Assembly: GCA_030696635.1 (NCBI GenBank)
Contig: JAUYRX010000024.1
Span: 41,401 to 105,400 of the forward strand
DNA length: 64,000 nt
DNA from: Candidatus Melainabacteria bacterium
GTDB lineage: Bacteria > Cyanobacteriota > Vampirovibrionia > Obscuribacterales > Obscuribacteraceae
Reading direction: 5' to 3'
Shown: in pieces, positions 10,197 through 52,851 of the stretch
How the letters are laid out: each line of letters opens with the position of its first letter
Numbering within the stretch: the stretch's first letter is position 1
Program-made: the position numbers and the translations under genes
The notes under the pieces: model-generated
The model's input: only the letters and a program-made list of their open reading frames with translations
What the model was told of the DNA's origin: nothing
Database searches by the model: none

Positions 10197-11465
10197 TCAC
10201 TCAATCGGTCGGAAGATTATAAAACTCATGTCGTCAGCACCAGCTTCAGGCTGAGGCTTGTTGAGAATACCTTGACGAATTTGCTCAGGCTTAGGGCCAG
10301 TCTTCTCTAAAAATTGCTGAAATGCTTGCACCTTACCGTAGCCAAAGCGATCGAAAGCACCATCGCTGGCCAATACAACTGTATCGCCCTTCCTCAAGCG
10401 AATAACTTCATTGCCCTTAGGGAAACTTGCATACATATCAGTACCTAGGCCTAAACCGCCCACTTCAGCATCAAGCTGCTTAACTGCGCCATTGGCGCGA
10501 ACCACAAAAGCAAACTCAGAACTAGCAGTAGCTGTCTGCAATCTACCAGTGGCCGGATCATACTTAAGCAATGCTGCTGTAATCGAAAGATCGTCCTTGG
10601 TATTCAATCTTTGATCAATCATACCCAGTATGTCGCTGGCTGATTTATTTGGCGTTTCAGGGAGAACTTTGTCAATAGCGGCATGAACAGTAACAGCTTT
10701 CTTTGCAGCGTTCAAACCATGGCCCTCAACATCCATGGCAGCAATCAAAACCTCGCCATCACGAGTTTTCGCCACTCTAATCAAATCACCGCTGGCAGCG
10801 CCCTTAGTCGCGGGCTCAGTATGAGCGATAAGTTCAATCTTGCCTGCTGCTTGTTTCTGCAACGTCGCTGGGGCTTCCCAGCGATTTTGCAGACTACGCA
10901 GAGCCAAACCGCCGTCAGAATCAGCCCGACTTAAGGCCACCTTAACCAGTTGAGACGGAGGGGCGAAGTGAGCCGTAGCCAGAGAACCAAATTTCATGCC
11001 AACAGCACCCACCCCTGTATCAACCACAAAGGCACCTAGGCTGTTTTTTGTTATCTCTATATTGCGCTCTCTATTGGCGCCAGAATGCCATGTGTCTTTC
11101 AAGGCACCGCCAAACTGACTCCAGCGCTTGCCAGTCAATTCATCGTAGGCAAACTTAGTGGCCATGGCCGTGCCAACACCAGCAGCAACCAACTTTCCGG
11201 GGGCGCCTAAGCGGCTGATAGCACCAAAGGCCACGCCTGTTGCCAATGAAGTGGTCAATTCAGGTAACTTATCTAAGGGCTTCTTGACTGTATCTAGAAG
11301 CGCGCGACCGACACCCAAGCTAATCATTTCTGCTTCACGGTACAATTTCTGAGAAGTTTCGGGCAAGGCATTATCAGGTTGCTCTTGGCCTCTGGTTGAA
11401 TCATTAGATTGGCTATTGAACTGCGGCATGGTAGCACTCGCGGAATCTCTACAAACTATCTTCAA
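10197..11465 (-). CDS. PP2C/SpoIIE-type Ser/Thr phosphatase with an N-terminal Gly/Ala-rich module
   Basis: C-terminal half carries AAMDVEGHGLNAAK (DxxGHG), VLASDGAFDRFG and DDMSFIIF. The N-terminal ~170 aa are Gly/Ala-rich (SLATGVAFGAISRLGAPGKLVAAGVGTAMATKF; VVDTGVGAVGMKFGSLA). The start is uncertain, with an alternative ATG at 11429. Confidence 0.8.
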   Translation of the reverse strand: MKIVCRDSASATMPQFNSQSNDSTRGQEQPDNALPETSQKLYREAEMISLGVGRALLDTVKKPLDKLPELTTSLATGVAFGAISRLGAPGKLVAAGVGTAMATKFAYDELTGKRWSQFGGALKDTWHSGANRERNIEITKNSLGAFVVDTGVGAVGMKFGSLATAHFAPPSQLVKVALSRADSDGGLALRSLQNRWEAPATLQKQAAGKIELIAHTEPATKGAASGDLIRVAKTRDGEVLIAAMDVEGHGLNAAKKAVTVHAAIDKVLPETPNKSASDILGMIDQRLNTKDDLSITAALLKYDPATGRLQTATASSEFAFVVRANGAVKQLDAEVGGLGLGTDMYASFPKGNEVIRLRKGDTVVLASDGAFDRFGYGKVQAFQQFLEKTGPKPEQIRQGILNKPQPEAGADDMSFIIFRPIE

Positions 11466-11498
11466 TGATTCCTGAAAAGAATAAAACAGCCAAGTGAC

Positions 11499-11800
11499 CT
11501 CAGCTGCTTACTCTGCCACCCCCGTGGAACTTTGAATTTTGTTGACTCGATTCGAATTCAATTGCATTGAATTCAGATGCAACTCACCCTATGACAATAC
11601 ATTCGCTTTACCATTTTTGCAAGCACTATTTTCGCCACAGAACGGCCACAGTTCAGCCACAGCGCCGCCACAGCAAGTTTGAGCAACGACACTAGCAAAC
11701 TGACTAAAACCTCATGGCACCATATGAAACACCAGATAGAGAAAGTGACTAACAACGCAAACACGTATAAACCCCAGCGAGCTGCCACAGAATTGACACT
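11499..11800. repeat. Paralogous intergenic element, copy A (intact)
   Basis: Contains CTCAGCTGCTTACTCTGCCACCCCCGTGGAAC (11499-11530), ATTGCATT..ACTCACCCTATGACAATACATTCGC (11561-11606) and four CCACAG at 11635/11646/11657/11668. It aligns by eye with 47604-47642 plus 48876-49125. Confidence 0.6.
11635..11673. promoter_or_regulatory. Four CCACAG hexamers in exact 11-nt phase
   Basis: CCACAGaacggCCACAGttcagCCACAGcgccgCCACAG. The same phasing occurs in copy B at 48970-49008 (CCACAA, CCACAG, ACACAA, CCACAC). Confidence 0.5.
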
Positions 11801-11818
11801 GTTGCATCCTAAAGTGAT

Positions 11819-12172
11819 ATGGAGACAATATTCGAAGCATTAGAGACGGACAGTATTGAAATTCCAAAACTGACGAAAGAAGCAGAAGAGGGCAAAGGTT
11901 GCTTGATTCGAGAAAAGATTCGAGAAATGCCATTTGAAGAGAGCTTGCAGACTCTTAAAGCTATTCAAAAACAAAATGAAAACAATCGAGATCTCAACTC
12001 CTCTCTTCCAAGCCTCTCCATGGATATTGAAGCCTGGCGGGACACCAGTGTCTATGCGAAACTGAACCTAAAAGATCACTGGTGGTCACCGCCACAAACA
12101 ATTACAACTGACGGAATATCCGTCGAAACTACTTCAGCGCAACGCTCTCAAAGTTGTACTGACCGGCATTAG
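11819..12172 (+). CDS. Hypothetical 117-aa protein
   Basis: ORF with protein-like, acidic and polar composition. No SD and no recognised motif. Confidence 0.4.
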   Translation: METIFEALETDSIEIPKLTKEAEEGKGCLIREKIREMPFEESLQTLKAIQKQNENNRDLNSSLPSLSMDIEAWRDTSVYAKLNLKDHWWSPPQTITTDGISVETTSAQRSQSCTDRH

Positions 12173-43694: not shown

Positions 43695-44282
43695 TTAATT
43701 GCTACCCTGAGCTCTCGTCTCGTTATGATTACCCAAGACTGACAAACTAGGTTGTCTGGTGCCAGCTTTCCAGGTGACAGTGTTATTGTTGCCGGTAATT
43801 GAAATCGCTGCAATGTTCTCGCAGATGACCTCATTATTGTTACCAGTAATAGAAAGCACACGGCAATTGCCATTGAGCCTAATTGTGCAATTATTACTGA
43901 AAATAGTACAGCTATCACCATTGCACATATAAGTAGCTTCTAAGTTGTTGGCCGAAACCATTATGTTCTTACCAGTCGCTAGGTTGCCTGGAATCACAGT
44001 AGTATTTACCGTCGTTTGGTTAATCACCGACGTTCTACTGGCACCCGAGTTCTTTTTTGATACTTGGGTAACTGTCTTGATTGTTTTGACATTGGCACGA
44101 CCGACTTTCGCGCTTGTGGCGGGGATTTTAACAGTATTACTTCCAGACTGTACAAAGACACCATCAGGACCGACTTTAACAGTGTTTCCATCCCCAGTAC
44201 TGAGCTCAATTTGCGCTAAAGCAGGAGATGTTACGCCAAGCAGGACAACTAGAGACAGCAGCAGAGAACTGTATGATTTCAT
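43695..44282 (-). CDS. Secreted DUF3060-like repeat protein
   Basis: Start set to ATG 44282 (MKSYSSLLLSLVVLLGVTSPALA signal peptide) with GGAGGTG SD. C-terminal NGDSCTIFSNNCTIRLNGNCRVLSITGNNNEVICENIAAISITGNNNTVTW. Confidence 0.7.
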   Translation of the reverse strand: MKSYSSLLLSLVVLLGVTSPALAQIELSTGDGNTVKVGPDGVFVQSGSNTVKIPATSAKVGRANVKTIKTVTQVSKKNSGASRTSVINQTTVNTTVIPGNLATGKNIMVSANNLEATYMCNGDSCTIFSNNCTIRLNGNCRVLSITGNNNEVICENIAAISITGNNNTVTWKAGTRQPSLSVLGNHNETRAQGSN

Positions 44283-44464
44283 GCTCACCTCCCAACAACA
44301 AAAACACCTAGTGAGTTTAGCCAAACTACAATCACATGTCTAGCTCAAGAGCAGACTGCGTATTCTCCCCCAGTAACTGACACAGATTCGCCACCGATGC
44401 CCACTAAGCTGCAAGTATGCAATGCAGAAATGCAGCAAATGAGTGAATCAAGTGGGGCAATTCA

Positions 44465-44896
44465 ATGACAGACTTCAATGCCATTTATAGACCTGAAACC
44501 GAAGCTGAAAAACAAGCTAAATCAAAGTATGATGAGAACAGAGAAACAAGCAAAGCGCTCTATAACTCTTTGGACAATGGCGACTACCTTGCGGCAGGAA
44601 AAATCTTGCAAGAGGCAGGCTCGTGCAAATGGGATAAGCTATTGAGAGACTCCGCCACTAGCAGCTTTAGGCCAAAGCCCTATGAAACGCACTACTTGAT
44701 GGACAAAGATAAAACCAGCGTGGAGATAATCGAAAAGATTTGGAGCCGCAGCGAAGGTAAACCAAATGTCTACGTACCGCGCCTGACAGTAACAGACGAC
44801 AGCTGTAGGGAAACTGTGAAGAAAGAAGCCAGCTTACACAAAGAGGCTAAGTCAAGCGACGCAGGCGGTAACCAACTCGAGGAATATTCTCAATAA
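44465..44896 (+). CDS. Hypothetical 143-aa protein
   Basis: Polar, protein-like composition. Its 3' end overlaps the convergent response-regulator gene by 50 nt. Confidence 0.45.
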   Translation: MTDFNAIYRPETEAEKQAKSKYDENRETSKALYNSLDNGDYLAAGKILQEAGSCKWDKLLRDSATSSFRPKPYETHYLMDKDKTSVEIIEKIWSRSEGKPNVYVPRLTVTDDSCRETVKKEASLHKEAKSSDAGGNQLEEYSQ

Positions 44897-45530
44897 ACGA
44901 TTGAGCATCACTATCGCCGACATCAAGCTTCTGCCGCAAGCGCTTTATTGAAGTGCGCAGGGCATCTGAAGTTGCTTCGGCGTCGGAGCCCCAGATTCTC
45001 TGCAAAAGAGCCTCAGAACTGAAAACTTCATCTAAGTGACGCATCATAAATTCAAGCAATTCAAAGTCGCGCGGCAGCAAATGAATTTCCACACCGCCTT
45101 TGGTGATTCTGCGCTTAACCACATCGAGCTCAAGATATCCGTTGGTAATGACATTAGTGACAACTGCTTGGGGCCGGCGAAGAAGGGCCCGCAAACGCGC
45201 TGATAACTCTTTGAGATTAAATGGCTTAGTCAGATAATCATCAACCCCAGAATCAAAACCTTCAACTTTCTCAGTAATTTGGCTCTTAGCCGTGAGCATG
45301 ATCACTGGAGCCACTCCGCCAGCCGCTCTGTATCGGCCACAAATCGCCGGCCCGGAGAGCCCCGGCAAATTCCAGTCTAGAATGACCACGTCGTAATTAT
45401 ACTGACGCAAAAATTCCCAGCCCGTCAGACCATCATGAGCCACCTCAACTGTATAGCCATCGGCGTTGAGCCACTCATTGACAACAGCTGACAAGTCTTT
45501 GTCATCTTCTACGAAGAGGATTTGGGGCAT
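44847..45530 (-). CDS. OmpR-family response regulator
   Basis: ILFVEDD, VILDWNLPGLSG, LTAK, KPF, and a winged helix ending in PRVGYRL. AAGGAAG SD. Confidence 0.9.
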   Translation of the reverse strand: MPQILFVEDDKDLSAVVNEWLNADGYTVEVAHDGLTGWEFLRQYNYDVVILDWNLPGLSGPAICGRYRAAGGVAPVIMLTAKSQITEKVEGFDSGVDDYLTKPFNLKELSARLRALLRRPQAVVTNVITNGYLELDVVKRRITKGGVEIHLLPRDFELLEFMMRHLDEVFSSEALLQRIWGSDAEATSDALRTSIKRLRQKLDVGDSDAQSFIENIPRVGYRLRRLT

Positions 45531-45672: not shown

Positions 45673-47553
45673 ATGCGGCTTTCTCTAGCAGCCAAAGGTT
45701 TAATTCTAGTCTCCATTCCCCTTTTCTTCGAAGTGGGCGTAGTGGCCGTGCTCGTCAACCTGCAAAAGCAGGCGGAGACCGAAACGGCCAACTCGCAGCG
45801 CTCAAGAAAGGTAGCTGCCGGCATTAGCCGCTTGTCAGCCGAGCTGTTTGACCTCTGGCAAAATGTTGTACCCAAATTGAAGAAACAATGGGCCACAACA
45901 GGCAATTTTGACCAAAGTTACAAAAACGCAATTGACAAGCTCAATGCCGAATACGCTGAGTTAGAGAGCTTGTGTACCGATCAACCAGAAATTCAGAGCA
46001 GACTAAAACAGTCACGAATAATTCTCACTAACGCCCAAAAAATTCTCGACCATGCAGCAGCCTCGATGGAAAGCGGCTTTGGACCAGCCATGGACAAAGA
46101 AGATATTGCAGTCTTGCGAAATATGCCCGCCACCATTCGTCAACTAGGCGAGAAAAACCAGGAATTAGAAGCCATATATAGGCGCGATTGGGCAGATAGA
46201 AGCCCAAATCGTCAGTCTGAATTGAGAGAGCAAACCCTAGGCGTAGCAGCAATTGCTGCTGTTTTTAACGTCGTTCTCAGTATTGCTCTAGCCATCTTTT
46301 TGTTGAAAGACGTCACCGGCAGGCTACAAATTCTCAAAGACAACGCTGCCAGACTGGCAGCCGGCATGCAATTGCGAGCGCCCCTGCAAGGCAATGACGA
46401 AATCGCCGAAGCAGACCGCGTCTTTCGCAAAATGGCTCGGGCTCTAACTGATTTAAGCCACAAAGAACGGGCGGTAATCGAAAACGCTCTTGATACCATA
46501 TGTGCCATCGACAAAGACGGCCGTTTTCTGAGCGTAAACCCAGCTAGCTTCGGCTTATTTGGCCTCGAACCAGATGAGTTAATTGGCTCGCGACTGGTAG
46601 ATGTAATTGCCGAAAGCAGCAGAGAAGATATCCTCGCCTGGACGGCTAGCCTAAGAAACAACTCTGGAGAGCAAGAACGTGAATTCTTAGTGCGTCGCCG
46701 CACTAGCCAAAACGGTAATAGTTTTGTCGATACGCTTTGGTCGGGCCACTGGTCTGAAGTTGAGCGCTCACTCTTCTTTGTCGTTCACGACATGACCGAT
46801 CGCAAAGAGCTAGAGCGAGCCAGGCAAGAGCTTGTTGCTATGTTTACCCACGATTTGCGCTTGCCCCTGAGCACAATTCAAGGAACACTTGAAATGGCAG
46901 ATGCTGGCCTGCTAGGCCAATTAAATGAGCGCGGCGAGAGGCTAATAAAAGCAGCAGAACGCAATGGCATCAGAATGATTGGACTAATTAACGACTTGCT
47001 TGATATCGAAAAAATTAAATCTGGCACCATGACACTAACTAGCGAGATAGTTGGGCTCGATGATGTATTTAATGACGTCAAACTCAATGTCGCAGCCTTA
47101 ACCGAAGAAGGCCACATTCATTTTGAGTGCCAACCAACCAAGCTAGCCGTGGTAGCAGACAAAGAAAAGCTTAATCGTGTGATCTTCAATCTTGTCTCGA
47201 ATGCTATTAAATTCTCCCCTCCACAAAGCCGCATTATTCTGGCTGCATCTGTCAGCACCAACGAATCAGAGAAGAGAGAACTAGGCAAAAAAGATCCAGC
47301 ACACAACCAATCAGCAACACAATTTGTCGAAATAACAGTAAGCGATCAAGGCCCTGGCATTCCACCAGATATGGTATCAACCATTTTTGAGCGTTTTCAA
47401 CAAGTGTCAGATTCAACACACAATAGCAAGGGCGGAACGGGGCTTGGGCTAACCATTTGCAAAGAAATAGTCAATATGCACGGCGGCAAAATCTGGGTCA
47501 CTAACGGCAAAGAGAAAGGCAGTGTATTTCACTTCACTATTCCTTGTGCCTAA
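45673..47553 (+). CDS. Sensor histidine kinase (TM, helical sensor, TM, HAMP, PAS, HisKA, HATPase)
   Basis: H-box MFTHDLRLPLSTIQG. NLVSNAIKFSP, DQGPGIP, GGTGLGLTICKEIV. PAS block ICAIDKDGRFLSVNPA. It is divergent from the RR gene. Confidence 0.9.
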   Translation: MRLSLAAKGLILVSIPLFFEVGVVAVLVNLQKQAETETANSQRSRKVAAGISRLSAELFDLWQNVVPKLKKQWATTGNFDQSYKNAIDKLNAEYAELESLCTDQPEIQSRLKQSRIILTNAQKILDHAAASMESGFGPAMDKEDIAVLRNMPATIRQLGEKNQELEAIYRRDWADRSPNRQSELREQTLGVAAIAAVFNVVLSIALAIFLLKDVTGRLQILKDNAARLAAGMQLRAPLQGNDEIAEADRVFRKMARALTDLSHKERAVIENALDTICAIDKDGRFLSVNPASFGLFGLEPDELIGSRLVDVIAESSREDILAWTASLRNNSGEQEREFLVRRRTSQNGNSFVDTLWSGHWSEVERSLFFVVHDMTDRKELERARQELVAMFTHDLRLPLSTIQGTLEMADAGLLGQLNERGERLIKAAERNGIRMIGLINDLLDIEKIKSGTMTLTSEIVGLDDVFNDVKLNVAALTEEGHIHFECQPTKLAVVADKEKLNRVIFNLVSNAIKFSPPQSRIILAASVSTNESEKRELGKKDPAHNQSATQFVEITVSDQGPGIPPDMVSTIFERFQQVSDSTHNSKGGTGLGLTICKEIVNMHGGKIWVTNGKEKGSVFHFTIPCA

Positions 47554-47603
47554 TGTTAAAAATGGATTGTCGCAAGTTCCGCCAAGAGGAAAGCAGCCGA
47601 TTA

Positions 47604-47642
47604 CTCAGCTGCTTCTCTCTGCCACCCCCGTGGAGCCCTTTG
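47604..47642. repeat. Paralogous intergenic element, copy B, left part
   Basis: CTCAGCTGCTTCTCTCTGCCACCCCCGTGGAGCCCTTTG versus copy A at 11499-11535. Confidence 0.6.
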
Positions 47643-47657
47643 TATGATGGTCAATTC

Positions 47658-48773
47658 TCACTCTCTGGTAGGTCTGGTACCAGTAGGATAGAACGTCGCA
47701 TCATCAATTGAACCTTGGTCCAATTGCAAATCTGGTCTAATGGTAGTGTTGCCATCACTGTAGATACTTGGACCAAAATCAAGAGTGTCATCTCCTGCTC
47801 TCAAGCCAACACCAGCGCCAACACTAGAATTCTCACTATCTAAATCAAAATGACCACCCGTACGAACACCGACTAGATCTGCTACGTCAGTATTAGCACC
47901 AGTATAAGCATGAACACCCTCTGGACCGACACCAGCACCCGCTTCAGCTTCTACATCAACAGGATAAACTCGACCACGAACATCGCCATCAACACCGGTA
48001 TTTCTGCCGACACGAGCATCAAAATCTGCGTCGCCATTGACGATATTGAAGAAGTTAGCACCGGCACCAACATCGCCACGCACACCATCCTCACTAAAGT
48101 TGACTCCGGCACCTGTTCGAGCGTGAATTGGTCCACCAATTGGCATGAACTCAGCATCAACCCGGGTGTTAGCACCAAGCTGTAGATCGGTTTTAGCTAC
48201 ACCGATATTTACACCAGCTTCAAGGGAGCCACCATCGTTATAGCCAAGTTTGACGATGCCCAAATCAAGGCCATGAAATTCAGGCTTAGGCTGATTGTAG
48301 ACAGCATCATAAGCTGGGCTATTGGATGTCGGTGGAGCGAAACGACTATCAGGAGCATAGCCAGGGTGCTTGATACGATTATCAGCGTCGGCGTCAGCTG
48401 GCGGAATTGGAAGATTCTTGTCATCAAGAGCTCTGATGTCGCTTATCTCAATAACACCATCATCTTGAGCATCGACTGGTTGGGCAGCTCTTCTTTGCTG
48501 TCTTACTACTTTTGGTTGGTGGCGAACCTTCTTCGCTTCGGCTTCTTCAGCAACACCATCCATGGCGTTGTTCCACTCTTTCTTGTTGTATTTATGCTTA
48601 TGCTCATTGTTCTTATCAACAATTGCCAAAGCCTTATCCCAGTCTTGAGGATTCTTACTGTTCCAGAGATCCCAGGCCACACGAGCGTCAGCCACATCAG
48701 CTGCCATATTTGCTTGGTTATCGCCATGCTTGTGGCTATGTTTACCGTGATCTGCGTGGTTTGACTTGTCCAT
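47658..48773 (-). CDS. Hypothetical protein: His/Lys-rich N-terminus and a Gly/Asp/Val/Asn-rich repetitive C-terminal half
   Basis: MDKSNHADHGKHSHKHGDNQ. C-terminal GVNIGVAKTDLQLGANTRVDAEF...GAGVNFSEDGVRGDVGAGANFF...GRNTGVDGDVRGRVYPVDVEAEAGAGVG. AGAGGAA SD. Confidence 0.6.
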   Translation of the reverse strand: MDKSNHADHGKHSHKHGDNQANMAADVADARVAWDLWNSKNPQDWDKALAIVDKNNEHKHKYNKKEWNNAMDGVAEEAEAKKVRHQPKVVRQQRRAAQPVDAQDDGVIEISDIRALDDKNLPIPPADADADNRIKHPGYAPDSRFAPPTSNSPAYDAVYNQPKPEFHGLDLGIVKLGYNDGGSLEAGVNIGVAKTDLQLGANTRVDAEFMPIGGPIHARTGAGVNFSEDGVRGDVGAGANFFNIVNGDADFDARVGRNTGVDGDVRGRVYPVDVEAEAGAGVGPEGVHAYTGANTDVADLVGVRTGGHFDLDSENSSVGAGVGLRAGDDTLDFGPSIYSDGNTTIRPDLQLDQGSIDDATFYPTGTRPTRE

Positions 48774-48875
48774 GGAATATTCCTCTTGGGGGAAGGCGAA
48801 ATAACTGTATTCGTTTTAAAAGCGCGCAGGCATCCAACTGCAAGCCTTGGGCTTATTCAGTGAAAACATATTCGG

Positions 48876-49125
48876 CTTTTGAAATTTGTCGGTTGGTTGC
48901 GATTGCATTTCCGACTCACCCCATGACAATACAATCGCAAAAACGATTTGGCAAGTAAAACTTTTTCTGCCACAAGTCCGCCACAGTTAGAACACAAATC
49001 GGCCACACGCAGATACAGAGCCATTCTCAAGCGACGACGGTAACGACCAAAAACGAAGACAACCGCCACTGATGAGCACCACATATAGTGCTCGCCACTT
49101 TTGCTACTACCACAGAGGATACTGC
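48876..49125. repeat. Paralogous intergenic element, copy B, right part
   Basis: CTTTTGAAATTTGTCGG, ATTGCATTTCCGACTCACCCCATGACAATACAATCGC, and phased CCACAA/CCACAG/ACACAA/CCACAC at 48970/48981/48992/49003. GCACCACATATAG and CTACCACAGAGGATACTG align with copy A. Confidence 0.6.
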
Positions 49126-49228
49126 GCTGATACCAGAAGCCGGTTAAGAAACCTCCCTTCAATTGACAATCGACTGAAAGATCTGATTTAATTCGGGCCC
49201 TTACTTTTCTAACTTAATTGGAGCCCCA

Positions 49229-50230: not shown

Positions 50231-50902
50231 TTAGGCTTCTAAGCGATAGCCAACGCCATGAATAGTGCGAATAATAGAGGGCTGACCTTCTACATCTATT
50301 TTCTTGCGCAGGCGCTTGATGCAAGTAGTAAGCGCGTCAACTGTGGCTTCAGACTCGGTTACCCAAACACGGTTGAGCAGCGCTTCAGCAGCAAACACGC
50401 GATTGGGATTGCGCATGAGAAACTCTAGCAAAGCAAATTCTTTCGGCAGGAGTCTTATTTCTTCACCATCTTTCATCACTTGAAAGTTCTGGTGATCAAG
50501 AGTGAGATGGGCAAACTTGAGCAAGTCTCCAACGTAACCCTCAGGGCGCCGCAGAAGAGCTCGCAGTCTAGCAGTTAGCTCTTTGCCATGAAATGGTTTA
50601 GTCAAATAATCATCGGCACCGGCATCAAAACCTGTTTCTTTATCATCAATAGTGCCTTTACCAGTGAGAACAAGCACTGGTGTGGTTCCACCTCGGCTGC
50701 GAAACTCTTTGAGAATCTCGATTCCCGTGACGTGCGGCAACTCCCAATCAAGAATAAGAATATCGTATTCATAGACCTTGAGCATATTCTGAGCTTCGGC
50801 ACCATCGGTGACGATCTCGACTTTATGGTGCTCCATCACGAGCCAATCGCGAATCATCTTGCCCAGCGAAACATCATCTTCGACAATCAGAACTTTGGCC
50901 AC
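50231..50902 (-). CDS. OmpR-family response regulator (paralogue of 44847-45530)
   Basis: GTG start at 50902 with GAGG SD. Motifs: VLIVEDD, LILDWELPHVTG, LTGK, KPF, HGVGYRL. Confidence 0.9.
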   Translation of the reverse strand: MAKVLIVEDDVSLGKMIRDWLVMEHHKVEIVTDGAEAQNMLKVYEYDILILDWELPHVTGIEILKEFRSRGGTTPVLVLTGKGTIDDKETGFDAGADDYLTKPFHGKELTARLRALLRRPEGYVGDLLKFAHLTLDHQNFQVMKDGEEIRLLPKEFALLEFLMRNPNRVFAAEALLNRVWVTESEATVDALTTCIKRLRKKIDVEGQPSIIRTIHGVGYRLEA

Positions 50903-50932: not shown

Positions 50933-52729
50933 TTATTGAATTTTACGAGGTATTTTAAACCAGAAGGTGCTGCCCCTTCCCTCTTGCGAATCTACCCCAA
51001 TTGTTCCACCATGACGCTCAACAATTGCTTTGCAGATAGCCAAGCCCAAACCGCTACCGCCTTTTACCTTGGCATCGTCGAGTTCAACCTGCTTAAATCT
51101 ATCAAAAATCGCCTCACGCAGCTGCTCAGGAACGCCTCGCCCTTGGTCAATGATATTAAACCTAATCCAATCTGGCTCTTCGGCGATCTCAAGGGCAACC
51201 GTGCCACCTTTAGGTGAAAATTTGATGGCATTAGAAACTAAATTGATGATGACCTGAACCAAGCGGTCGCGGTCGGCAAAAATCTCTGGATTGCGGTGGC
51301 CTGGGGCCACGAGCTTCACCCCTTGCTGCTCAGCAAAGCCCCGCACAGCCTGCATTGACGGTTCTAGAATGGCCGAAACTTGATAGCTTTCGCGCTGCAG
51401 TATTAATTTGCCAGACTCCATCTTTTCTAGGTCAAGTAGACCATTAACCAAACCAATCAAACGGTTAACGTTGGCCTCAGCGGCCTCTAGGTTTTCATGA
51501 CCGCTATCGCTAAGCTGGCCGTAGGCTTCAGCCTCAAGAAGAGAAAGAACCATTTGAATAGAGGTCAATGGAGTACGCAAGTCGTGGCTGACCATGGCGA
51601 CAAAATCACGCTTCATGCGGTCAACTTGCTTACGCTCAGTGATATCGCGAGCCACACAAAAAAGCGTTTTGTCGGCCTTAGACCAGTGAGCAGACCAAGC
51701 AAAATCAACACCACGACCGTCACGGCACATAATGCGATTTTCAAAAGATCCGGTACCGCTTGGGCTAGCTATCAGATCGTCAATTGCCTTGAAGGTAGCC
51801 TTAATATCGTCCTCATGAACAATGGCATCGATGCCATCGCCAATCAAATCTTCTTCCAGATAGCCCCAAAGCTTTGCCGCCGCAGGGTTTACAGCAACAA
51901 AACGCCCCTGGCGATCGAACGAGCAGATGACATCTTCGGCATTGTCGACAACCGCATGCTCTTTGCGTCTTGACTCTTCTAAAGCCGATGCCATATCGCG
52001 GAAAGTATGATCTAACGTAGCAATTTCATCTCGACCAATCAATGGCGGACTGAGCGGTTGTTCCAGCGCCAGGCGCTTTGTATTGTCGAGCAAAACGTTG
52101 AGCCGCTTAGTGGTACCACGATTAAAATAGAAAGCCAAACCAATGGCCAACAGCACATTAAACAACAGGCCAACCGGCAAAATAATTTCTACAGCACGCC
52201 TGTAGCCAGCTTGTGCAACCTTCCCCTCAGCCAAGACCTTGGTCTGATAAACCTCAATTTCATCAATTGCCCCTAACAGCTGACTAATATCCTTGTCGGC
52301 ATGCATCCACATGCGGGCAGCACCAATCTTGCTACCTAATTCAAGCTGACCCTGGGCTCGCTGAAGATTTTCTATAGCGCGGGTGAGCAACCCAGTAATT
52401 TTATCGATAGCCGCCTTTTCTTCAGGGTGATCGCGCACAAGCGGTTCCAAAGCAGCAATCTCAGCCTGAATCTTGAAGCGCGATGTCTCAAAACGCTTCT
52501 TAAATGACGGACTGTCAGAGACGTGGTAAAGCACACAGGACGAAAAACGGTCAAGCAAAGCAGTCAGGGCAGCGTTAACCCGACCGGTTACCTCTCTGGC
52601 ATGGTTTTCACGTTCCCGCTCTCTATCGACCGAGTAAAGCAAAGTGGCAAGACTAACCACAAAGACAATCTCAAAGGCCAAGGGAATGGCCACAAGAATA
52701 AGTGCTTTTTTGGAGAGACTTAAAGACAT
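50933..52729 (-). CDS. Sensor histidine kinase (paralogue of 45673-47553)
   Basis: Same architecture. H-box MVSHDLRTPLTSIQ. NLVSNAIKFSP, DQGRGVP, GGSGLGLAICKAIV. The N-termini align (MSLSLSKKALILVAIPLAFE versus MRLSLAAKGLILVSIPLFFE). Confidence 0.9.
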   Translation of the reverse strand: MSLSLSKKALILVAIPLAFEIVFVVSLATLLYSVDRERERENHAREVTGRVNAALTALLDRFSSCVLYHVSDSPSFKKRFETSRFKIQAEIAALEPLVRDHPEEKAAIDKITGLLTRAIENLQRAQGQLELGSKIGAARMWMHADKDISQLLGAIDEIEVYQTKVLAEGKVAQAGYRRAVEIILPVGLLFNVLLAIGLAFYFNRGTTKRLNVLLDNTKRLALEQPLSPPLIGRDEIATLDHTFRDMASALEESRRKEHAVVDNAEDVICSFDRQGRFVAVNPAAAKLWGYLEEDLIGDGIDAIVHEDDIKATFKAIDDLIASPSGTGSFENRIMCRDGRGVDFAWSAHWSKADKTLFCVARDITERKQVDRMKRDFVAMVSHDLRTPLTSIQMVLSLLEAEAYGQLSDSGHENLEAAEANVNRLIGLVNGLLDLEKMESGKLILQRESYQVSAILEPSMQAVRGFAEQQGVKLVAPGHRNPEIFADRDRLVQVIINLVSNAIKFSPKGGTVALEIAEEPDWIRFNIIDQGRGVPEQLREAIFDRFKQVELDDAKVKGGSGLGLAICKAIVERHGGTIGVDSQEGRGSTFWFKIPRKIQ

Positions 52730-52851
52730 CTAGCTATTATTGCAAATTCGCGAATGCCAAAAATCTGCCAAAACTTTGCCCGACTCCTGCCAACCCCTTT
52801 ATTTATATTGAACACGTTGCCAGTGCAGCAATTACTAAAGAGGCCAAGATC

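Follow-up and report, generated by a model that had tools for sequence, protein, structure and literature searches.

A conserved, lineage-specific pair of loci with 11-bp-phased repeats in Obscuribacterales, one of which is predicted to encode a short RNA

What is the function of the repeats in an intergenic region upstream of a SpoIIE/PP2C-type phosphatase gene in a Candidatus Melainabacteria bacterium? The region lies at positions 11499–11800 of a 64-kb stretch of DNA (assembly GCA_030696635.1, contig JAUYRX010000024.1, positions 41,401–105,400 of the forward strand; hereafter, the window). A first description of the letters and open reading frames (ORFs), here called the sequence-only reading, presented it as a paralogous element of about 300 nt with CCACAG repeats and a second copy in the window, and offered an array of same-face protein-binding sites, a structured RNA or a small-protein gene as explanations. 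We refer to this region as copy A and to the region at 47591–49018 of the same window as copy B. The features of both are described as read on the minus strand and are collected in Table 1; loci from other records are given by L numbers. The two copies form a real, conserved and lineage-specific regulatory pair, which involves no new kind of mechanism. On balance, we lean towards an OmpR/PhoB-type operator that would act on a sigma-70-type promoter, from which copy A would produce a short RNA.

The four CCACAG hexamers were present at 11635, 11646, 11657 and 11668 as described, and the repeating unit was the 7-mer GCCACAG, starting at 11634, 11645, 11656 and 11667. The pattern GCCACAG-N4-GCCACAG matched copy A exactly three times, and Tandem Repeats Finder returned a period of 11 with 3.9 copies. 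The same 11-nt spacing had been claimed for copy B and was found there with GCCACAA at 48969, GCCACAG at 48980, AACACAA at 48991 and GCCACAC at 49002. A fifth unit (CTGTATC on the minus strand) was located 10 bp further upstream. On the minus strand, an array comprises three to five direct YTGTGRC heptamers with an exact 11-bp period and variable 4-nt spacers. Pairs or arrays of YTGTGGC phased at 11 nt (≤1 mismatch) occurred four times in the window, all on the minus strand, compared with 0.62 in shuffled sequences, and arrays of at least three phased units occurred in none of 100 shuffles.

The similarity between the copies was far above that of shuffled controls: a local alignment of 11530–11830 with 48860–49170 scored 37 (z = 17.6), against 11.1 ± 1.5 (maximum 17) for dinucleotide shuffles and 9 for the reverse complement. 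The 20-mer ACTCACCCYATGACAATACA was found only at 11582 and 48914 and the 18-mer CTCTGCCACCCCCGTGGA only at 11511 and 47617, with approximately zero occurrences expected. The proposed two-member paralogy was borne out, but not the notion of one element, as the region is a composite of operator array, promoter, short transcribed unit and terminator. The first of the blocks listed as shared is common to both copies, but in copy B it is separated from the other blocks by the whole gene at 47658–48773 because it represents the 3′ end of that gene. The last of the listed blocks (CCACAGA..A.ACTG) was not homologous between A and B, and in A belongs to a separate GCCACAG-AATT-GACACTG pair.

Copies were searched for by exact-pattern scans in one genome per species, and metagenome contigs were scanned with the core promoter as the query. 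The exact-pattern scans assigned the sequence to Candidatus Obscuribacterales, a group of non-photosynthetic cyanobacterial relatives. Exactly two copies, both conserved, were found in each related Obscuribacterales genome examined, including one complete 6.7-Mb chromosome and metagenome contigs, and this number held for the core promoter and for the 3′ 18-mer alike. Both types were syntenic in all genomes examined, the A-type copy being located upstream of the SpoIIE/PP2C phosphatase gene and the B-type copy between an arginase-family gene and a gene for a 371-aa orphan protein. With two syntenic members per genome, the family is therefore not a dispersed repeat, and the metagenome scan with the core promoter returned A and B types alone, indicating that there is no third member. 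Scans of the whole collection with the patterns GCCACARN4GCCACARN6CACA and three YTGTGRC units (at least 120 matches each) yielded mostly unrelated tandem repeats; among the matches listed, only the A-type orthologues L032 and L052 were gained, and no newly matched locus resembled the window. Five loci from unrelated bacteria (L066, L094, L098, L061 and L015) had intergenic stretches in which three or more YTGTGGC units recurred every 11 bp, which may be chance picks of the search pattern, or similar operators or iterons. Two records (L011 and L134; CALRJJ02...) are labelled as a "Flavobacterium psychrophilum" metagenome-assembled genome and yet carry Obscuribacterales A/B loci with 82–98% protein identity; the public record probably contains a binning or labelling error here.

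All A copies, all B copies and the B copy of L143/L224 shared a common order of parts: array, A/T-rich stretch, promoter, 5′ stem-loop and unpaired motif. The A/T-rich stretch occupies the 11–14 nt between the array and the −35 hexamer, and the distance from TTGCMA to TATTGT was 17 nt in every A and B copy, with a spacer sequence that differed between the paralogues. The copy B promoter was invariant in 11 genomes and in L143. Downstream of the −10 hexamer is the invariant CATRGRGTGAGT, within which the transcription start site would be expected. A sigma-54 promoter was considered and rejected, as the TGGC..TTGC spacing is 15–18 nt, not 11.

Within the arrays, the heptamers were kept and the spacers were not. 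The latter read GGCG/TGAA/CGTT in A compared with GGAC/CTAA/GGAC in B, and they also differed in L143 and L147 while the heptamers stayed conserved. The two promoter-proximal units of copy A were invariant in 10 genomes, and the distal two varied (26% invariant). The 11-bp period was the same in copy B, L143, L147, L151 and L146. Exact 11-bp direct repeats of conserved heptamers with varying spacers, placed just upstream of a conserved −35/−10 pair and recurring upstream of distant homologues of the copy B gene, are best accounted for by same-face protein-binding sites, the first of the explanations that the sequence-only reading had offered.

The non-coding cores were more conserved than the neighbouring codons. 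In copy B, 88% of 153 core positions were invariant among nine genomes, whereas the three codon positions of the B gene were 80%, 84% and 39% invariant and the 150 nt upstream of the array 17%. In copy A, the 3′ 71 nt of the predicted RNA were 93% invariant and the proximal repeats with the promoter 79%, compared with 66%, 78% and 18% for the codon positions of the PP2C gene and 10% for the 120 nt upstream of the array. The A unit was almost unchanged in the L143/L224 lineage, where the B protein is 63% identical and the lineage's own B 3′ module has drifted. Copy A, being better conserved than the ends of B itself, is not a decaying remnant.

On either side of copy B is a two-component system, RR2/HK1 on one and HK2/RR1 on the other; the two systems are paralogous, and each has a histidine kinase (HK) and a response regulator (RR). 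RR2 is approximately 48% identical to RR1 over its full length and 81% identical to the L143 regulator, which contains the Response_reg and Trans_reg_C domains; RR1 is 97–99% identical across genomes. The RR2 orthologues flanking the B homologue in L143 showed 81% and 78% identity. We inspected nine distant loci encoding B homologues (41–63% identity) and searched them over 4.5 kb for arrays. A YTGTGRC pair or array with 11-bp phase was present within 300 nt upstream of the gene in five of the nine, with approximately 0.04 expected, and L146 carried a variant array of three to four nCGTGGC units with the same period. The B homologue adjoins a PAS-HisKA kinase and an OmpR-type regulator in four of these loci (L143, L145, L149 and L150) and in the window, such that the linkage extends over five lineages. 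L145 and L149 both carry the regulator gene after B in the same orientation, and the site could therefore autoregulate this gene. L144 and L148 had no array, and no kinase or regulator gene was called within approximately 4 kb of their B gene. In L144 (3880–3925 and 5200–5245), and likewise in L148, a different promoter-like motif is common to the B homologue and the gene after it, consisting of TGTCCGTTTTT(G/T)GTCA, about 10 nt and GTATATT, which suggests a switch of regulator in this array-less lineage.

A third phased array, of the related motif nTTGGCA, was found 26–70 nt upstream of the HK2–RR1 operon and was conserved in six genomes with variable spacers. It probably serves the autoregulation of one or other of the paralogous regulators.

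Several features that characterize operators of the OmpR/PhoB class, namely direct repeats of a 6–8-bp unit, a period of 10–11 bp, conserved units with variable spacers and a nearby regulator and kinase, are present. As in those operators, two to five units stand in a row with 11 bp between their centres; they precede or overlap a sigma-70-type promoter and are linked to a histidine kinase–regulator pair. A Pho box is formed of a 7-bp unit plus a 4-bp spacer and replaces the −35 element, whereas the array here stops 11–14 bp before it. The sites of ArcA are direct repeats at 11 bp centre to centre, mostly of three to five units, and multiple repeats have been noted for OmpR and PhoB too (PMC3798270). 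The recognition sequence of the operator proposed here, YTGTGRC, matches that of no characterized regulator available for comparison. A parallel in layout is found in the CiaR-dependent small RNAs (csRNAs) of streptococci, in which CiaR sites (TTTAAG-N5-TTTAAG, 11-bp period), a −10 element and a terminator specify RNAs of 51–202 nt within a two-component regulon (PMC3091779). Copy A is similarly an intergenic unit of response-regulator-like direct repeat, −10 element and intrinsic terminator, which together span 11673 to 11475 on the minus strand, within 250 nt; the RNA is a predicted one. It differs from the csRNAs in that there is no sequence or structural homology, the phylum is a different one, the repeats stand upstream of a recognizable −35 and the ends of the RNA recur in a paralogous mRNA. 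SARP/AfsR regulators, with an OmpR-type winged-helix domain, bind direct repeats 11 or 22 bp apart on one helix face (PMC10936776). The 11-bp rule is common to these sites and the arrays, and the position relative to the −10 element is different. SARPs are an actinobacterial family, and no SARP gene was found among the annotated genes of the window or in the loci inspected.

The region downstream of the copy A promoter was predicted to form a structured RNA of about 113 nt. On the minus strand it folded at −36.2 kcal/mol (z = −3.9), compared with −21.9 kcal/mol (z = −1.8) on the plus strand, which folds more weakly because several terminator pairs are G·U. The suggestion of a structured RNA made by the sequence-only reading therefore applies to 11476–11588 on the minus strand and not to the repeat array, which gave no folding signal. 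The 5′ stem-loop was kept with different sequences, namely GAGUUG..CAACUC in A, GUCGG..CCGAC in B and UCGGUUU..AAACCGA in L143, and was followed in both copies by an unpaired ACAAAWUUCAAAG motif. In copy A, the 3′ module directly follows the ACAAAAUUCAAAG motif, and the predicted terminator consists of an 11-pair stem and the tail TATTCTTTTC; it is specific to the minus strand because of four G·U pairs. The PP2C gene is located downstream of every A copy, with its start codon approximately 55 nt beyond the U-tract.

Copy B contains about 100 nt more leader after the unpaired motif, followed by the Shine–Dalgarno sequence and the gene. This part includes a second hairpin, CUGAAUAAGCC-CAA-GGCUU(G/U)CAG, whose stem is kept while the loop changes between clades; the fold of the B leader had an unremarkable z-score and no obvious alternative pairing. 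A conserved C-run, CCUUCCCCC (48775–48800), lies directly upstream of the Shine–Dalgarno sequence. About 20 nt past the stop codon is the 3′ module, with CCAC-GGGG-GUGG, CAGAG and a terminator hairpin in that order. The terminator has a 10–11-pair stem and a weaker tail, UUUCCUCUU, and was not called by the scanner used for promoters and terminators. The terminator stems changed compensatorily between lineages, for instance AAGCAGCUGA/UCAGCUGCUU and ..CCGA/UCGG.., with covariation in L143 and an entirely different stem in L147; the small CCACGGGGGUGG hairpin was retained. The GGGG loop is exposed by this hairpin, which is shared by the two copies (47622–47633 and 11516–11527).

Copy A thus resembles copy B minus its coding part and most of its leader, with AAAG microhomology at the junctions. 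What it retains of the paralogous protein-coding unit is the promoter, some 45 nt at the start of the leader, the 3′ hairpin and the terminator. In keeping the ends of a coding unit, it is like small RNAs that derive from the untranslated regions (UTRs) of mRNAs or from decayed genes; unlike the latter, it is more conserved than B's own ends, and both gene loss and gene insertion are conceivable.

The 371-aa product of the B gene was modelled with AlphaFold2 (predicted local distance difference test score of 73) as a His-rich N-terminus, three helices, a disordered linker of ~55 residues and an antiparallel beta-meander of ~15 strands, the last of these with confidence. A comparison of the fold by Foldseek gave weak matches only, to porins and the ApoB beta-belt (TM-scores of 0.2–0.33). 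No obvious N-terminal signal peptide was seen by eye (no predictor was run). There were 52 homologues, and every one with a named source came from Obscuribacterales or related Cyanobacteriota.

In the mechanism that we favor, the YTGTGRC heptamers at every 11 bp would be bound head-to-tail on one helix face by a winged-helix OmpR/PhoB response regulator, for which RR2 and RR1 are the candidates. The array, at about −47 to −86 and upstream of the A/T-rich stretch and the sigma-70-type promoter, would when occupied recruit or stabilize RNA polymerase. The copy B transcript would comprise the 5′ stem-loop leader, the orphan gene and the 3′ hairpin–terminator module. Copy A has the same promoter, with the 5′ stem-loop and the 3′ module directly adjoining, and would give a terminated RNA of ~113 nt under the same control, most likely a small RNA; read-through could also feed the PP2C gene. 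A and B are paralogues, and one of them would have given rise to the other when the coding part was lost or gained at the AAAG microhomology.

Several observations weigh against this mechanism. The copy A promoter matches the consensus at 8/12 positions and that of copy B at 9/12; the scanner called the latter and missed that of copy A, which was below threshold. Between the array and the −35 hexamer there are 11 nt in A, 13 nt in L143 and 14 nt in B, and such differences would alter the helical phase relative to the polymerase. The L147 array was ~115 nt upstream of a promoter-like site, and in L149 and L150 the heptamer pair was inverted relative to the gene. No matching array was found in the RR2–HK1 intergenic region. 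Among A-type sequences there was no compensatory change because they are too similar, and the support for the hairpins comes only from comparisons between paralogues and lineages. Finally, the PP2C gene showed no convincing promoter of its own, so that the A RNA could be a leader and not a free small RNA.

Table 1 Coordinates and sequence features of copies A and B and of associated genes and sites in the window.
Feature	Positions	Strand	Description
Copy A operator array (predicted)	11634–11673	−	Four direct CTGTGGC, 4-nt spacers, exact 11-bp period
Copy A predicted −35	11617–11622	−	TTGCAA; TTGCMA conserved in all A and B copies
Copy A predicted −10	11594–11599	−	TATTGT, inside invariant block GCGAWTGTATTGTCATRGRGTGAGT; B hexamers identical
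Copy A predicted non-coding RNA, ~113 nt	11476–11588	−	Predicted start near 11587; predicted 3′ end in U-tract 11475–11486
5′ stem-loop of A RNA	11541–11588	−	Basal stem UGAGUUG/CAAYUCA conserved; apical part varies in length
Conserved unpaired segment of A RNA	11528–11545	−	CAAYAAAAUUCAARGUU; related motif ACAAAUUUCAAAAG in B leader
Small hairpin of copy A	11516–11527	−	CCAC-GGGG-GUGG; within invariant 18-mer 11511–11528; two copies per genome
Copy A predicted intrinsic terminator hairpin	11475–11514	−	Followed by tract UUUUAUUCUUUUC
SpoIIE/PP2C-type phosphatase gene	10197–11432	−	Pfam SpoIIE, E = 1.2e-22; conserved ATG at 11432
Copy B operator array (predicted)	48969–49018	−	TTGTGGC, CTGTGGC, TTGTGTT, GTGTGGC at 11 bp
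Copy B promoter (predicted)	48926–48954	−	TTGCCA, 17-nt spacer, TATTGT; scanner-called, 9/12
Copy B 5′ leader	48774–48919	−	Stem-loop 48888–48915, motif ACAAAUUUCAAAAG, second hairpin, C-run, Shine–Dalgarno AGAGGA
B gene, 371-aa orphan protein	47658–48773	−	No Pfam match
Copy B 3′ module	47591–47634	−	CCAC-GGGG-GUGG hairpin 47622–47633; predicted terminator hairpin AAGCAGCUGA..UCGGCUGCUU 47591–47614
RR2, candidate regulator, OmpR-type response regulator	44847–45530	−	Divergent from histidine kinase HK1 (45673–47553, +)
RR1, candidate regulator	50231–50902	−	Pfam Response_reg and Trans_reg_C; operon with histidine kinase HK2 (50933–52729)
Third phased array	52755–52799	−	Four nTTGGCA (TGCCAAn on plus strand), 11-bp period
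Extra heptamer pair	11784–11801	−	CAGTGTC-AATT-CTGTGGC; overlaps TTGACA of divergent plus-strand promoter
Upstream shared block GGCACCATATGAAACACC	11716–11733		Matches one half of copy B palindrome

A possible but doubtful alternative is that copy A is a regulated 5′ leader of the PP2C gene, i.e., an attenuator whose array-driven promoter is the PP2C promoter and whose hairpin and terminator stop most transcripts unless a factor or signal permits read-through. Copy A is indeed directly upstream of PP2C in the same orientation in all genomes, only the ~55 nt between the U-tract and the ATG intervene, without a 9/12 promoter, and this interval is moderately conserved (51% invariant). However, the same 3′ module ends the B transcript past the stop codon, with only a convergent gene beyond it, and its ancestral role would therefore be 3′-end formation, not attenuation. 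The long form of A had a z-score of −1.8, no alternative antiterminator pairing stood out, and there was no leader peptide, the 19-codon ORF of the window being absent from the L032-type copies.

It is improbable, in our judgement, that the A RNA is a UTR-only paralogue of the B mRNA that acts in trans on B, with which it shares the 5′ stem-loop and UCCACGGGGGUGGCAGAG plus the terminator arm. By one route, the A RNA would be a decoy for an RNA-binding protein or RNase recognizing the 3′ module on the B mRNA. By another, its G-rich hairpin loop would pair with the C-run upstream of the B Shine–Dalgarno sequence, and a 5-bp G:C pairing of the C-run with the GGGG loop is possible from the sequences. 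Such an RNA would constitute a feed-forward loop inside one two-component regulon, which might be linked to the adjacent PP2C and Ser/Thr-kinase signalling genes.

We consider it very unlikely that the whole conserved region is a structured or protein-bound RNA that includes the repeats as CUGUGGC and is transcribed from further upstream. This would fit with the near-invariance of the whole 150–170-nt core among close relatives, including the B promoter spacer, and with invariant bases that reach beyond the hexamers (GCGAWTG.. and CATRGRGTGAGT). However, neither strand of the array region folded better than its shuffles (z = −1.5 and +1.6), a period of 11 nt is meaningless in an RNA, and the sequence upstream of the array is unconserved (10–17% invariant) and holds no common promoter. 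A DNA site could tolerate the inversion of the pair in L149 and L150, whereas an RNA element could not. A search of Rfam 15 gave no match, either for the window at gathering thresholds or for 11350–11850 at E ≤ 1, and no tRNA or tmRNA gene was found in the window.

The small-protein option is scarcely credible. The minus-strand ORFs at 11573–11788 (71 aa) and 48857–49162 (101 aa) are present as the sequence-only reading described them; both are uninterrupted in the window, and they can be aligned over their C-terminal halves (NCG..VA.K.VLAK..R.YCH.VS). However, changes between orthologues were spread evenly over the codon positions (132/118/139 and 147/152/137) and the synonymous to non-synonymous counts were 23:191 and 23:211, whereas the nearby real genes were 39% and 18% invariant at position 3 vs 66–84% at positions 1 and 2. 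There was no conservation of start codon, N-terminus or ORF length, a plus-strand frame was equally "conserved", there was no Pfam match and an ORF would cross the promoter and array. The "3-nt indel" of the ORF alignment lies between the array and the −35 hexamer, outside any codon context.

We attach just as little probability to a mobile or selfish repeat (similar to a miniature inverted-repeat transposable element or a cassette recombination site) or to a cluster of DnaA boxes. In favor of these readings, one genome holds two dispersed copies, the AAAG microhomology is common to the junctions and the CCACA core resembles the 3′ half of a DnaA box. However, the number of copies is exactly two in every genome, always in the same syntenic places, no terminal inverted repeats were found at the element, the 5′ TTWT is absent from every unit ((C/G)(G/C)GCCACAG vs TTWTNCACA) and the cumulative GC skew is monotonic across the window. 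The last two observations also led us to reject a replication origin.

Further sites in the window resemble those of the proposed OmpR/PhoB-type operator or lie beside it. The extra heptamer pair at 11784–11801 is conserved in L008, and the divergent promoter that it overlaps belongs to a gene for a 117-aa protein (11819–12172). Because of this overlap and the occurrence of the pair in L008, the same regulator might also control the 117-aa gene. A weak heptamer pair, CGGTGGC-GAAT-CTGTGTC at 44379–44396 on the minus strand, is located ~60–100 nt upstream of a signal-peptide protein gene (43695–44324) and is conserved in L003 and L012; this gene may be a further member of the regulon. A near-perfect 16-bp palindrome, GCACCAyATrTGGTGC, lies at 49076–49091 between the B array and the promoter of the arginase-family gene; it is conserved in all B copies, with only one half in A copies, and looks like a site for a different, dimeric regulator. 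The arginase-family gene promoter itself (49163–49192; TTGACA, 17–18 nt, TTTAAT) is near-consensus and strongly conserved.

A full-text literature search on "Obscuribacter" brought up no paper that dealt with its small RNAs or its two-component systems. Gene regulation in the Obscuribacterales (Melainabacteria) is essentially uncharted, and most members are known only from metagenomes. The analysis yields a candidate operator motif (YTGTGRC with an 11-bp period), a core promoter, two candidate regulators and a candidate small RNA, each of which is conserved in the related genomes that were examined. The predicted non-coding RNA unit consists of the promoter and both ends of a paralogous protein-coding unit, an arrangement that bears on the origins of small RNAs.

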